A DNA stretch of 64,000 nucleotides from Candidatus Poribacteria bacterium. Its GTDB lineage: Bacteria > Poribacteria > WGA-4E > PCPOR2b. The position numbers and the translations under genes are program-made. Location: the NCBI GenBank assembly GCA_965116925.1, contig OZ220744.1, forward strand, positions 4,768,001 to 4,832,000. Reading direction: 5' to 3'. Shown here one piece after another: positions 29,948-34,656 of this stretch. The first letter of the stretch is position 1. The number at the start of each line of letters is the position of its first letter. The notes beneath the pieces were generated by a model. That model ran no database searches. It was given only the letters and a program-made list of their open reading frames with translations, and was not told the DNA's origin.

Positions 29948-31084
29948 TCAACAAGGACAGCTATCCGAAGATAGTCTTACGTCCTCTCCTTCGAGGGTTG
30001 ATGCCCCAACCCGGTAGATGTTAATCGCAGCGTTGCGGTCTCGGTCATGCCGCATGCCACAATCGCTACACTGCCAGTTTCTATCACGCAGATTCAACGT
30101 TTCATTGACCACACCACAAACCGAGCAAGTTTTACTGGAGGGATACCACTTATCAATGAAGGTGATTTTGACACCTTTTTTCTTGGCGATATACACCAAT
30201 TTCTTGACGAAATCGGCAAATCCTAAGTCACTGACTTTGCGGCCCCATAGGGCTTTCATGCCTTTAAGGTTCAAGTCTTCAAGACGGATTTCGTCGTATT
30301 CATCGGTCAGTTGGTGTGCCAACTTCCAGTGGAAATCCTCCCGTTGGCGCTCAATCTTACGGTGTTGTCGGGCTAAATCAAGCCGTGCACGTTCACGGTT
30401 ATTTGACTGCTTCTTTTTCCGTGAATGGTTACGATTGGCACGTTTGATAACGTTGATGCTTCGTTTGAAAAACTGTGGCGATTCTATATCGTGTCCGTTA
30501 TGACCGGCGAGATACCGTTTCAGACCGAAGTCGAAGCCTGCGATTTTACCCGTCATGACTCGATTGAGGTCTGGTTCATCATAGTCCGTTAGAATCGTGA
30601 TATAGACATCACCTACGGTGTCCCGTTTAATGGTGCAACGTTTTGGACTACCAAACACATCACGGGACTTGAAATACTGATAGATACGTTTACCAATTCT
30701 AATACGATTGCCCGGCAGTAACTTCCAACCGGCTTGAAGTAAGGTGAATGATTTGTACTTACGACGGGGCTTGAAACGGGGACGACCCCATGCTTTGCCT
30801 TGCACACGCGCTTCAAACATTGCCTTATACCCTTTGTCAATACGGGAAGCCACGTCCTGTATCGATTGGCTTGGCAGCTGATTCCAATGGGAAAAACGAG
30901 GTAATCGTTTCAGTTTGGATATATGATTGATTAACCTAAACTTGCTGATATATTTGCCATAGATTGCATAGTAACGACGCTGAAGGGCAACGCAGTGATT
31001 CCAGACGTGAGCATGACCATCTATCGTCTTATGCAATTCGCGATTGCCGTGATTGCTATACAACTTGAACTTGTAAGTTTTCAT
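29948..31084 (-). CDS. tnpB: RNA-guided endonuclease TnpB
   Basis: GFDFG, LEDL, SSKTCSVCG...CSDCG, DRDRNAAINI; RuvC D-E-D intact. Confidence 0.95.
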   Translation of the reverse strand: MKTYKFKLYSNHGNRELHKTIDGHAHVWNHCVALQRRYYAIYGKYISKFRLINHISKLKRLPRFSHWNQLPSQSIQDVASRIDKGYKAMFEARVQGKAWGRPRFKPRRKYKSFTLLQAGWKLLPGNRIRIGKRIYQYFKSRDVFGSPKRCTIKRDTVGDVYITILTDYDEPDLNRVMTGKIAGFDFGLKRYLAGHNGHDIESPQFFKRSINVIKRANRNHSRKKKQSNNRERARLDLARQHRKIERQREDFHWKLAHQLTDEYDEIRLEDLNLKGMKALWGRKVSDLGFADFVKKLVYIAKKKGVKITFIDKWYPSSKTCSVCGVVNETLNLRDRNWQCSDCGMRHDRDRNAAINIYRVGASTLEGEDVRLSSDSCPC

Positions 31085-31325: not shown

Positions 31326-32453
31326 TCACGGATTCACATAGGTTTCATTCATATACCGAGCGATGATTTTGATATCCTCCTCTTCGAGGAAAAGGCCGTT
31401 ATCAATCATGCGAGCGATAAGTTCTGTAGTTTCCTCCTCCGATGTTGGCGGAACGTTATCAACGTCTGAAAGGTCATGGCAGAGGGAACAGGTGATTTCA
31501 AATAGTTCCCTCGCAGCTTCCGGGTCGTAGGCATCTTCAACCGGCGTTTCATCGGTCTCCCCAACCTCATCCGGATTCACAATTTCTTCGTCTGGATTCA
31601 CAATCACTTCATCCGGATTTACAATCACCTCATCTACCACTTCATCCGGATTTGTCAAAACAGCTAAAGCGTTTTGCGCTTGGCTAGCCTGCATTCGCTG
31701 CCTCCGCTGTTCTTTCGCTGAAACTTGCAGTTCGGGCGTGATCGCGATAAGATATGCGGATACCGTCCACTGATCTTCTAGGGAAATTGGTTCCCCTACC
31801 ATCGGCTTGATCGCCATCCGATCCACCGTTCGCACCCAATCCGGCGGGGTACGTGGACGCGCTAAGATAGTTCTTAAATCGTGGCACTGAACGCACTTCT
31901 TCAATAGAACGTCCTGCCCCTCGCGCAATTTCCGCCTCGTAGCCAGCTTATCAAGTGGCGCGTCAGGCGGCAATCCCGCCATTTGCAGTCGTGTATGTGT
32001 CCGTTCGATGCTGGCATCGCTGAAGACGCGCAGGGTACTTTCCCGTAATGTGAAGGGTATGGATAGACCAATTAGGAGATAGGTACATATCAAGAGTGCC
32101 GTCCCGATATAAGGCATCGCTTCCTCAAAGTGTCGGAAGAAGCGGAGAATCGAAATTTTGACCAGAAGTAAAACGCCGATTGTGATGCCGAGCATCAGGT
32201 GGGCGACGGTACGCGGTGGGAGCTCAACCTGATAATTCCACAGGCGAGGCACCATGTGCCACATCATGAAGATATAAAGGATCAGATACGCATAGCCGAT
32301 AGCCCGGTGGACAAACATCAGCGATTTCGGTGCGGCACTGGTACGGGTTTCATGGTCGAAGGGATACCCCCACAGTTTATACATCAAAAACACGGAAGCA
32401 TTCCCCAGACCGAGGAAAATCAACCCAAGTATTGTACTAGTTGCAGTTGACAT
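31326..32453 (-). CDS. Membrane-anchored diheme c-type cytochrome with N-terminal 4-TM His-bearing domain
   Basis: About four TM helices with three His; CVQCH and CSLCH, each followed by a Met about 20-25 residues later; NPDE repeats between them. Confidence 0.8.
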   Translation of the reverse strand: MSTATSTILGLIFLGLGNASVFLMYKLWGYPFDHETRTSAAPKSLMFVHRAIGYAYLILYIFMMWHMVPRLWNYQVELPPRTVAHLMLGITIGVLLLVKISILRFFRHFEEAMPYIGTALLICTYLLIGLSIPFTLRESTLRVFSDASIERTHTRLQMAGLPPDAPLDKLATRRKLREGQDVLLKKCVQCHDLRTILARPRTPPDWVRTVDRMAIKPMVGEPISLEDQWTVSAYLIAITPELQVSAKEQRRQRMQASQAQNALAVLTNPDEVVDEVIVNPDEVIVNPDEEIVNPDEVGETDETPVEDAYDPEAARELFEITCSLCHDLSDVDNVPPTSEEETTELIARMIDNGLFLEEEDIKIIARYMNETYVNP

Positions 32454-32481
32454 CGTATCCCCCTATAGATAGACCTCTGGT

Positions 32482-32510
32482 AGTAGGGAACGCAGATCTG
32501 CGTTCCCTAC
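32482..32510. repeat. GTAG-type REP hairpin
   Basis: GTAGGGAACGCAGATCTGCGTTCCCTAC; near-identical copy at about 47004-47032. Confidence 0.8.
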
Positions 32511-32517
32511 AATTGCG

Positions 32518-33699
32518 TCAGAACCAAAAATGCGACATCAGGATGAGCTGATCTGTACCCTCAAGTTGGCGGTCGGTGCTCGTTGTATCGCGCTCATCGT
32601 TTGCGATGTTGAGCCAATAGAATAGCTCAAGGGAACCGTTTTCCATAAAGATATATTGCGCTGCAAGTGTCACACGTTGGCTTCCATCTCCTTTGACCGT
32701 GCGATCTGGATCGAACAGTCCGTAACGTCCGGAGAGCGTAAGTTCCGGCATCACGCGATATTTCGCACCAAAATAGTAACCCTTGGAGGTGATGTCATCA
32801 TCGCTGAAGCCGATACTCTCATCGTCGCCGTAACTGCCCCCAAAATTGAATTCGCCTTCAAGGGTGAGATTTTTGAGGGCGGCAGTCAAAAAAGCCCCAG
32901 CAGTCATTTCACGATCTAGGTCTCTGTCTCTATCAAGGAGAAAGGAGACACCGCCTCGCAAGGGTCCAAGCGTAGTGCCGGCAGTTGCAGCCATCCCTTT
33001 ATGTTGGTTGCTATCTGCGGCCTGTCCAGCACTCCGATTTCCGTTGACCAGAGCGGCATTGTAAAATACCTTGCCGTAAGTACCACCGACCTCAACGCCG
33101 ACATCCCGTTTATGTGATCCGAGGTTATACCCTTGACGAACCAAGATATTGTGGTCTCTCTGTTTAAGGCCAAACGGAAGGCGGAATTGCCCCACTTTGA
33201 CGTAGAGGTGTTTGGGGATAGCATCAACCGTCGCAAACATGTTGAGAGTCGCACCCATATTGTTGGATAGGGTCAGTCTGAGTTTGTCCGATGCTTGTGC
33301 ATTGACGGTCAATTCGCCCTGCATCAGAAGGAAACTATCAACGGATGAATGGCATGAGGTACAGGTGGCTCTTGCGCGTCCTTCGAGATCGACATGGGTT
33401 GTTTTGATATACGCGGTACGGATGTTGACCGCTGTTGTGAGTCTTTGGCGCACCTCTTCCGCCTCTTTCATAATTGCTTCCGGATCGAAATCCTCCGGAA
33501 ATTCAAAGTAGTTATCTTCATAAACCTGCCCAATCGCATTGCGCGGTCCGCCGCCTGCCGGATCGAGATGGCAGAAGATACACTCTTTGTCTTCCATCGC
33601 TGCAAACTCCGGGCGCGCCATGCTATCAGAGACGAAAGAAAGCGTCAATAATGCGCTGAATAAAAAGACTAAAAATCCAAACTGAAACCTGTATATCAA
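32518..33699 (-). CDS. Cyc2-like porin-cytochrome c fusion with two CxxCH motifs
   Basis: Signal peptide; PEFAA...CIFCH; second motif CTSCH; VGQFRLPFG; amphipathic strands; C-terminal HFWF. Confidence 0.75.
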   Translation of the reverse strand: MIYRFQFGFLVFLFSALLTLSFVSDSMARPEFAAMEDKECIFCHLDPAGGGPRNAIGQVYEDNYFEFPEDFDPEAIMKEAEEVRQRLTTAVNIRTAYIKTTHVDLEGRARATCTSCHSSVDSFLLMQGELTVNAQASDKLRLTLSNNMGATLNMFATVDAIPKHLYVKVGQFRLPFGLKQRDHNILVRQGYNLGSHKRDVGVEVGGTYGKVFYNAALVNGNRSAGQAADSNQHKGMAATAGTTLGPLRGGVSFLLDRDRDLDREMTAGAFLTAALKNLTLEGEFNFGGSYGDDESIGFSDDDITSKGYYFGAKYRVMPELTLSGRYGLFDPDRTVKGDGSQRVTLAAQYIFMENGSLELFYWLNIANDERDTTSTDRQLEGTDQLILMSHFWF

Positions 33700-33764
33700 T
33701 TGATGACCTCCTCAATGTATAGCTAAAACGTAAAAAACAGAGATATTGATTTGCTTGTCGTCTA

Positions 33765-34547
33765 TTATTCGAGTGTTACGAACACAAAATCTGTAGCAGC
33801 AGCACCTGAGTGGCAACCTGTGCAGACCCCCCCTTCAAAAGCCAAGCGAAACTCTGCGTCTGGTGCGCCTCGCAAAAATTCCTCAAATCTCCAGTCTCCA
33901 AAAGCGGGATTACTTCCTGCTTCCTTCCACATCACTGCGACTAGTCCAATAAAGTCTTGATCCGGACGAGTTGCATCCTTCACGACAATCGAGCCGTCCG
34001 GATAAGGGAACTGCTGTTGACCATTCGGAGCAATTTCCGCACGTGTTTTGTTGACATAGACATTTTTCGTTCCGCGATGCGGGTCAAAGCCCGGCACCGG
34101 CGGAATCGGTTGCGCGTTTAACTTCAGCCACTGATCATACCCTGCTATATCCTCCGGCAGGCCTGGAAGGGCAGCCGGTGGTTCGGGTTCCGGTTGTGGC
34201 ATCGGTTCTACTCGCGGTGGTTCGGGTTGTGGCTGCGGCTGCTGGACAGGTGGTTCAGGCATCTGACCACCCGGCTGCGGTTGTGGTTGGGCAGGCGGTT
34301 GTGGCATCTGTTCACCCGGTTGCGGCTGTGGTTGGACAGGCGGTTGCGGCGTCTGCTCACCCGGTTGTGGCTGCTGTTGGGCGGGTGGTTGTGGAGTCTG
34401 TTCACCCGGCGACGGCTGTTGGGCGATGGGTGGCTCAGGTTTGACCACTTCCCCTTCATCTCCACAAGAAACGAAAATTATACAGGCAACAATAATAAGG
34501 TTCAAAATCAAGGGACCTAGATATTTTTGGATCATCTTTTTCTCCAT
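33765..34547 (-). CDS. Cytochrome P460-family lipoprotein with Pro/Gln-rich linker
   Basis: Lipobox FVSC; VYVN, YPDGSIVVKD, VMWK, GDWRF, CTGCH...DFVF. Confidence 0.8.
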   Translation of the reverse strand: MEKKMIQKYLGPLILNLIIVACIIFVSCGDEGEVVKPEPPIAQQPSPGEQTPQPPAQQQPQPGEQTPQPPVQPQPQPGEQMPQPPAQPQPQPGGQMPEPPVQQPQPQPEPPRVEPMPQPEPEPPAALPGLPEDIAGYDQWLKLNAQPIPPVPGFDPHRGTKNVYVNKTRAEIAPNGQQQFPYPDGSIVVKDATRPDQDFIGLVAVMWKEAGSNPAFGDWRFEEFLRGAPDAEFRLAFEGGVCTGCHSGAAATDFVFVTLE

Positions 34548-34565: not shown

Positions 34566-34656
34566 GGCTCATGTTAAGAAATAGTGCAAAGAAACCGAGT
34601 TTTCAAGAAAAAACTCGGTTTCTGTTCGAATTTCCCACTTTCGTTTCATATGAACC
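34566..34656. mobile_element. MITE family C with 8-bp TSD (AAGTCAAT)
   Basis: GGCTCATGT...ATATGAACC ends; AGAAACCGAG...CTCGGTTTCT hairpin. Confidence 0.85.

Follow-up and report, generated by a model that had tools for sequence, protein, structure and literature searches.

Within a 64,000-nt stretch of a Candidatus Poribacteria genome (contig OZ220744.1, positions 4,768,001 to 4,832,000 of the forward strand; hereafter the window), three neighboring genes at positions 31,326 to 34,547 encode the putative c-type cytochromes P0001, P0002, and P0003. The reference genome (G000) is a single 6.47-Mb contig (C1), and the named homologs of the trio come from Ca. Poribacteria. As described in the initial annotation of the locus, the genes are co-oriented and closely spaced. 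They lie on the minus strand, separated by 65 and 64 bp, and encode five CxxCH haem-binding motifs in total (1 + 2 + 2). The proteins and the residues discussed below are located as follows.

33765..34547, minus strand: P0001, P460-fold monohaem c lipoprotein of 260 aa, with signal peptide, lipobox Cys28, Pro/Gln tether (residues ~29–130), and P460/c'-beta domain (~131–260)
34077..34079, minus strand: His157 of P0001, distal capping position and candidate sixth iron ligand (profile alignment; 31/31 rows)
33978..33980, minus strand: Lys190 of P0001, haem cross-link position (profile alignment to 9HRK and the F61V mutant 7ZQZ)
33936..33938, minus strand: Ala204 of P0001, distal-carboxylate position (profile alignment; nearly invariant Ala)
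33810..33824, minus strand: CxxCH of P0001, residues 242–246 (from the sequence; 31/31 alignment rows)
32518..33699, minus strand: P0002, two-haem-motif cytochrome-porin fusion of 393 aa, with signal peptide to Ala28, N-terminal haem plug, predicted 16-strand OprP-like barrel, and C-terminal Phe
33568..33582, minus strand: CxxCH 1 of P0002, residues 40–44, Cyc2-type N-terminal site in the predicted periplasmic plug (invariant in homologs)
33349..33363, minus strand: CxxCH 2 of P0002, residues 113–117, in the long strand 1–2 loop, which is predicted to face outward (76/77 rows; DSSP of the model)
31326..32453, minus strand: P0003, inner-membrane dihaem c protein of 375 aa, with DUF6529-like 4-helix bundle (1–140) followed by two SorB/cytochrome cz-like c domains

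P0002 is a variant of the Cyc2-type cytochrome-porins, and its P460-fold partner is unusual. The AlphaFold2 (AF2) model of P0002 (77 input sequences; pLDDT, or predicted local distance difference test, 71; predicted template modeling score, pTM, 0.69) contains 16 strands. The structure that matches it best is OprP (Z 23.5, root-mean-square deviation 3.4, 285 aligned), with chitoporin tied at Z 22.9. The usual porin pattern combines long outer loops with short inner turns, and the loop holding motif 2 is therefore predicted to face outward because it is long. Both CxxCH motifs were kept in 121/121 close homologs. Residues C113, C116, and H117 of motif 2 occurred in 76/77 aligned rows, while conservation of the flanking loop columns dropped to 14–50%. 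Motifs kept in this way among variable neighbors are not chance occurrences. Searches of Pfam and NCBIfam with P0002 returned no family above cut-off, and sequence searches of the PDB gave nothing significant, the best match (E 0.075) covering the N-terminal motif only; neither a Cyc2 model nor a Cyc2 sequence came up in these searches.

A profile search with P0002 found 1646 representatives at E ≤ 0.001. Motifs were counted in the best 150 of these, of which 121 of at least 330 aa were kept and 29 shorter ones dropped. The N-terminal CxxCH was present in all 121 full-length representatives; 112 had this one motif, six also had the loop motif, and three had two N-terminal motifs. The last three (P0377, P0392, and P0431) represent a second, independent two-haem layout, and P0369, P0371, and P0373 are distant barrels that also bear the loop-1 CxxCH. 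Within the phylum, the loop motif is also present in families f7 and f9, one-haem forms occur in f8 and genome G040, and lineages with identity as low as ~40% retain the loop motif. Candidate sixth ligands for haem 1 are H183 and M126, found in 32/32 close rows but in only 88/121 and 86/121 representatives, respectively, and H390, found in 101/121. Comparison of the barrel alignments revealed no sixth ligand specific to the two-haem forms.

P0002 shares with Cyc2 of A. ferrooxidans, Mariprofundus (Cyc2PV-1), and Ghiorsea (Cyc2TAG1), as far as these are described in the available parts of PMC8406198 and PMC13692758, the signal peptide, an N-terminal CxxCH after AxPxFA, the predicted 16-strand barrel, and OprP as best template. 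Cyc2 is described as a single-haem protein, modeled on OprO/OprP, with the motifs AXPXFAR[Q/K][T/Y] and PXL (Keffer et al., PMC8406198, available text). In contrast, P0002 has two CxxCH motifs instead of one and lacks both R[Q/K][T/Y] and PXL, but contains PxGGGxRN, which is common to a large unnamed family. The full AXPXFAR[Q/K][T/Y] motif was found in 0/121 full-length representatives, P0002 itself matching its AxPxFA part only, and PXL downstream of CxxCH was likewise found in 0/121. The partners also differ, being a P460-fold lipoprotein and a four-transmembrane (4-TM) cytochrome, not Cyc1 or rusticyanin. The earlier suggestion of a Cyc2-like cytochrome-porin is thus supported in architecture, although the Cyc2 signature motifs are absent. 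Judged by sequence and model, P0002 is Cyc2-like and is not classed as Cyc2; it represents a two-haem-motif branch within a related family that is large and has no name. Calls of cyc2 cluster 2–3 hidden Markov models have been published for a vent Poribacteria metagenome-assembled genome, and these may or may not be P0002-type proteins.

P0001 matched PF16694 above cut-off (E 4.2e-12), and PDB searches returned cytochrome c'-beta and P460 matches. Lipobox Cys28 is followed by a tether of 102 residues, 37 of which are Pro and 24 Gln; the tethers of orthologs span about 30 to 105 residues, and the lipobox was matched in 25/27. The available text of PMC11928373 describes the pocket of characterized P460 and c'-beta proteins by three features, namely the cross-link Lys, a distal carboxylate, and a cap. 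In the profile alignment, K190 of P0001 aligns with the cross-link Lys of McP460 (Lys78) and with position 61 of McCP-beta (Phe61), A204 with McP460 Asp102, so that the catalytic base is absent, and H157 with the cap Phe32 of McCP-beta. H157, K190, and CxxCH were invariant in 31/31 rows of an alignment that included four rows from unrelated contigs and two paralog domains. A paralogous lipoprotein (L082:3584-4630) carries two tandem P460-fold domains, both of which keep the His cap and the Lys.

P0001 thus resembles the P460 and c'-beta proteins of PMC11928373, as far as its available text covers them (McP460, 6HIU/9HRK; NeP460; NsP460; McCP-beta, 6HIH; TtCP-beta, 7EAD), in its PF16694 fold, C-terminal CxxCH, and Lys at the cross-link position. 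It differs from them in the Ala at the distal base (as in inactive NsP460), the His cap, the lipid anchor, and the long Pro/Gln tether, and from cytochrome c'-beta in having Lys instead of a hydrophobic residue at the cross-link position. Table 2 of the same source gives solely Phe or Arg as caps among the six proteins tabulated. The source further reports NH2OH (hydroxylamine) oxidation and NO (nitric oxide) binding as the characterized roles of the superfamily, inactivity of NsP460, which lacks the distal carboxylate, and a low potential of −205 mV for McCP-beta. The initial annotation noted that P460 proteins act on hydroxylamine or NO. A reading of P0001 as a hydroxylamine enzyme fails at Ala204: as in NsP460, the distal base is missing, and oxidation of hydroxylamine by P0001 is therefore unlikely. 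From its sequence, an electron-carrier role appears likelier. His157 may close the haem as sixth ligand and so turn the protein into a pure carrier.

The model of P0003 (pLDDT 87) contains four N-terminal helices, in agreement with the hydropathy profile, and two small c domains, with a long helix plus an acidic linker as the connection. The CxxCH at residue 187 is paired with M213 and that at 322 with M349; both methionines are invariant. Both c domains are similar to SorB, cytochrome cz (PscC), and QHNDH alpha, but in P0003 they are fused to a membrane bundle of four helices whose His and Met residues are conserved. The match to SorB (NF052246, E 2.5e-9) was below cut-off; PF09098 was also matched, and 3A9F gave a template modeling score of 0.73 over the target. 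DUF6529 matched P0003 itself weakly (15.3 bits against a gathering cut-off of 23.3), and it matched 62/100 members of the P0003 family at E ≤ 0.05 (best 6e-5); Atlas neighbors also carry DUF6529. A distant set of 120 longer homologs (44–62% identity), the named ones from Polyangiaceae, Nannocystis, and a gammaproteobacterium, kept H49 (119/120), M64 (120/120), M67 (120/120), H85 (120/120), and H108 (118/120), and 88/120 of them had three CxxCH motifs. His66 was rejected as a ligand because its invariance in 24 close rows did not extend to the 120 distant ones. In the P0003 family, a cupredoxin is fused in 13/100 members and a third cytochrome c in others. We found no characterized protein with a similar architecture of a 4-helix membrane bundle and two c domains. 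A membrane haem b and contact with quinone may be proposed from these residues. The link to the quinone pool proposed in the initial annotation did not gain further support, since it rests on the conserved His and Met of a four-helix bundle that has no specific structural match. The other structural descriptions given there held: the P460 lipoprotein sits on a Pro/Gln linker (102 residues, against the ~95 estimated), the barrel carries haem motifs, and the 4-TM protein has two haem c domains.

Gene order was compared in 61 genomes of Poribacteria relatives, which are kin and thus not independent. The P0002 gene was matched in 61/61. The trio was adjacent in 21/61 genomes (20/20 of g1 and 1/1 of g4), and its order and strand were kept in all 20 g1 genomes with spacers of 35–640 bp. 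The P460 and barrel genes were adjacent in 37 of the 53 genomes having both; besides the adjacent trios, these comprise 15/61 in which the P0003 gene lay elsewhere, in many of them on another contig, and 1/61 in which it was not found. In five further f2 genomes, the P460 and barrel genes were again adjacent (5/5), with the P0003 gene far away. All three genes were unlinked in 15/61 genomes, and in 1/61 the P460 gene was unlinked from the barrel and the P0003 gene not found. The barrel occurred without either partner in 8/61 genomes (7/7 f4 and G030), as confirmed with broader profiles; these eight represent about two independent events, in which the P460 and P0003 orthologs are missing together. 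A second contig of G025 and L094 each show a barrel end followed by a P0003-type gene. The barrel was also matched in 165/176 phylum genomes, among them 155/158 others in the order, mostly once per genome; outlying matches of the phylum survey were weak one-haem relatives. The barrel and the P460-fold lipoprotein are the conserved core, and the trio is not an obligate three-gene cassette. P0003 is probably a facultative neighbor and a general membrane electron acceptor.

Beyond the phylum, a metagenome survey of the P0003 family used the best 80 of 357 confirmed matches; five Poribacteria-like loci (60–67% identity) were set aside, leaving 75, and flanks of 1.5 kb or more upstream and 1 kb or more downstream were available in only 29 of these. 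In the unrelated, unassigned locus L148 (67% GC), a stretch of ~6 kb accommodates a P0003-type gene, three P460-fold genes, and, on the strand opposite to the P0003-type gene, a one-haem relative of the barrel (E 1.4e-5). Neither P0003 nor the L148 barrel had a plasmid match. The same region (L148:2606-8680) also has small cytochrome-like lipoproteins, and one of its three P460-fold genes has CxxxCH. In L160 and L162, a P460-fold gene adjoins the P0003-type gene. Six loci (L101, L106, L107, L108, L116, and L154) belong to one lineage, in which the P0003-type gene stands among housekeeping genes; the preceding open reading frame (ORF) is presumably gatA-like and, in most of these loci, the following one sucD-like, as we read their N-terminal sequences. 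The co-occurrence expected in the initial annotation thus stands for the 21 genomes with an adjacent trio and for the cluster in the unrelated L148, and does not hold where the trio is split or the barrel stands alone.

Other features of the locus are the following.

33706..33713, minus strand: Shine-Dalgarno-like sequence, 6 nt ahead of the TTG start of P0002 (from the sequence)
32483..32510, no strand: perfect 28-bp palindrome in the P0002/P0003 spacer, resembling a repetitive extragenic palindromic (REP) repeat, with 77 exact copies in G000
34591..34624: second REP-like palindrome, with about 50 near copies in G000

The copy number of the spacer palindrome led us to reject it as a locus-specific element. 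A scan for promoters and terminators was uninformative (9 against 4.3 ± 1.9, and 7 against 4.1 ± 2.1). Directly downstream of the trio (29948-31084, minus strand) lies an IS200/IS605 TnpB with Cas12f1-like TNB and OrfB domains; one copy in the genome, at C1:4.93 Mb, is 99.7% identical, and several others are 80–84% identical. According to the ORF list of the window, no iron-uptake genes flank the trio. Elsewhere, L088:969-5488 contains genes for a probable porin, an imelysin, and a di-haem DHOR, next to which lie an ORF similar to bacterioferritin and a probable TonB receptor gene; it is likely an iron-uptake locus, some of these labels being our presumptive reading of the sequence.

Cytochrome c maturation genes, which the initial annotation had called for, are present in G000 (CcmA, B, C, E, F, and H at C1:5.755-5.763 Mb), and a ResB search found no System II maturation there. 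A Rieske/cytochrome b/multihaem cluster lies at C1:418-437 kb and a haem-copper oxidase subunit I (COX1) at 444 kb. This cluster (L081, G000:C1:418000-437999) comprises a Rieske protein, a split cytochrome b, a 1041-aa protein with eight CxxCH, a protein resembling bd subunit I, and several c cytochromes, one of which is a c/EB_dh fusion; together with COX1, it forms an unusual respiratory supercluster. NirS had no match in G000, NirK none over cut-off, and HAO none, although the HAO search matched in no control genome either.

The reading that we tentatively favor is that the trio forms an inward electron relay across the envelope, from the barrel through the lipoprotein to the inner-membrane cytochrome. 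Electrons from a donor outside the cell would enter at the surface-loop haem (motif 2, predicted); candidate donors are a partner cell, Fe(II) or another metal, and a reduced sulfur or organic compound. The predicted plug haem (motif 1) would hand them to the P460-fold lipoprotein, whose tether of 30–105 residues may let the domain shuttle, and the lipoprotein would deliver them to the His/Met c domains of P0003 and then to the aerobic respiratory chain. Haem loading of motif 2 is presumed. The predicted locations support one haem protein per envelope layer, as had been proposed earlier. Cytochrome c domains with His/Met ligation usually have higher potentials than P460-fold haems. The inward direction would follow from this difference, the low potential of McCP-beta, and the analogy to Cyc2.

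If the trio works together, it resembles MtrCAB and MtoAB-CymA, as described in the available parts of PMC8406198 and PMC10654088, in having one redox component per envelope layer. It differs from them in having 16 instead of 26 strands and five c haems instead of decahaem wires, and in lacking a quinol dehydrogenase of the NapC/NirT family. Literature searches, mostly of open-access main texts, found no description of a P0002-type barrel, a barrel–P460 pair, or the trio, and nothing on DUF6529, on Cyc2 with a second haem in an extracellular loop, or on the combination of P460, porin, lipoprotein, and Cyc2.

Several observations weigh against the inward relay of three proteins. In the AF2 model, the strand 1–2 loop that holds motif 2 has pLDDT below 50. 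Of the 51 genomes having all three genes, 30 show a split trio, among them single-contig genomes of g5 and g11 in which the genes lie 0.1–4 Mb apart; the eight barrel-only genomes point in the same direction. Around unlinked P0003-type genes in Poribacteria, no other CxxCH gene was found within ~4 kb in the 10 neighborhoods checked. Among the 75 foreign loci, with their mostly short flanks, a barrel was nearby in 1/75 and a P460 fold in 3/75; the rest had no recurring redox neighbor, the gene being mostly stand-alone. Fold searches with P0003 gave only generic helical or four-helix bundles (Z at most 12.2) and no Foldseek match at E ≤ 0.001, an outcome that is not evidence of a new fold. The three-layer conduit is plausible, not established. 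A more specific form is doubtful, in which five c haems make a minimal wire across the whole envelope, with a single-chain porin bearing one haem on each face, a tethered P460-fold shuttle that has the His cap and the Lys and was repurposed from nitrogen-oxide chemistry, and a His/Met b-type inner-membrane cytochrome of a kind so far undescribed.

It is possible, though rather unlikely, that the barrel and P460 protein alone are the unit, acting as an outer-membrane electron relay or a redox-gated pore, with P0003 an incidental neighbor in one lineage (g1, g4, and probably g7). The restriction of trio adjacency to three genera of one family would fit this, as would the stand-alone P0003 genes of most foreign loci, the opposite strands in L148, and the REP-like repeat in the P0002/P0003 spacer. 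This explanation sits poorly with the order and strand kept in 20/20 g1 genomes despite their variable spacers, the joint absence of the P460 and P0003 genes from eight genomes, and the independent co-location in L148, L160, and L162. A relay by the barrel across the outer membrane, in some form, is common to this explanation, to the inward relay, and to outward wiring. In the last case, which we consider unlikely, b-type haems in the P0003 bundle would receive electrons from the cytoplasm or from quinol, and Fe(III), another metal, or an extracellular acceptor would be reduced at the surface haem, for example in reductive iron uptake. The near-invariant His and Met of the bundle fit membrane haem ligands, a Cyc2 has been reported at −130 mV (PMC13692758, available text), and the available text of PMC10367259 presents the host as a degrader of carbohydrates and not as an iron oxidizer. 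Against outward wiring, the matches listed for the bundle include no cytochrome b561 or ferric reductase, the trio lacks flanking iron-uptake genes, and the middle step would run uphill if the His/Met c domains sit between quinol and a low-potential P460-fold haem.

That the locus is instead a module for binding or detoxifying NO, hydroxylamine, or peroxide among nitrifying sponge symbionts, with the other haems draining electrons, is quite improbable. The retained cross-link Lys and the known roles of the P460 family speak for such a module; the Ala at the distal-carboxylate position, a His cap that could block the site, and the search results for NirS, NirK, and HAO in G000 (the last with its unmatched controls) speak against it. 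We regard it as very improbable that motif 2, on its surface loop, holds no haem and serves as a soft-metal site or a disulfide, which would make the barrel a one-haem porin. Most of the family is indeed of this type (112/121), G040 lacks motif 2, and no sixth ligand specific to two haems was found; yet conservation of the His that follows CxxC equals that of the cysteines, and the motif persists in lineages down to the identity given above.

Fe(II) presumably must pass into the pore of the single-haem Cyc2 (PMC8406198, available text). With a second haem in an outer loop, if true, a 16-strand porin could exchange electrons with donors unable to enter, using far fewer haems than Mtr/Mto. The five-c-haem wire, if true, would be an unrecognized extracellular electron pathway, missed by screens for Cyc2 motifs, in a dominant sponge symbiont lineage and in unrelated bacteria that have these three protein families. 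With its His cap, this P460 subfamily points to one more use of the fold and cautions against reading PF16694 as hydroxylamine oxidation; likewise, a P0002-type barrel is not to be taken as a marker of iron oxidation. Nearly all genomes of the main Poribacteria order have the barrel gene, which therefore probably has a core redox function that has so far gone unrecognized.

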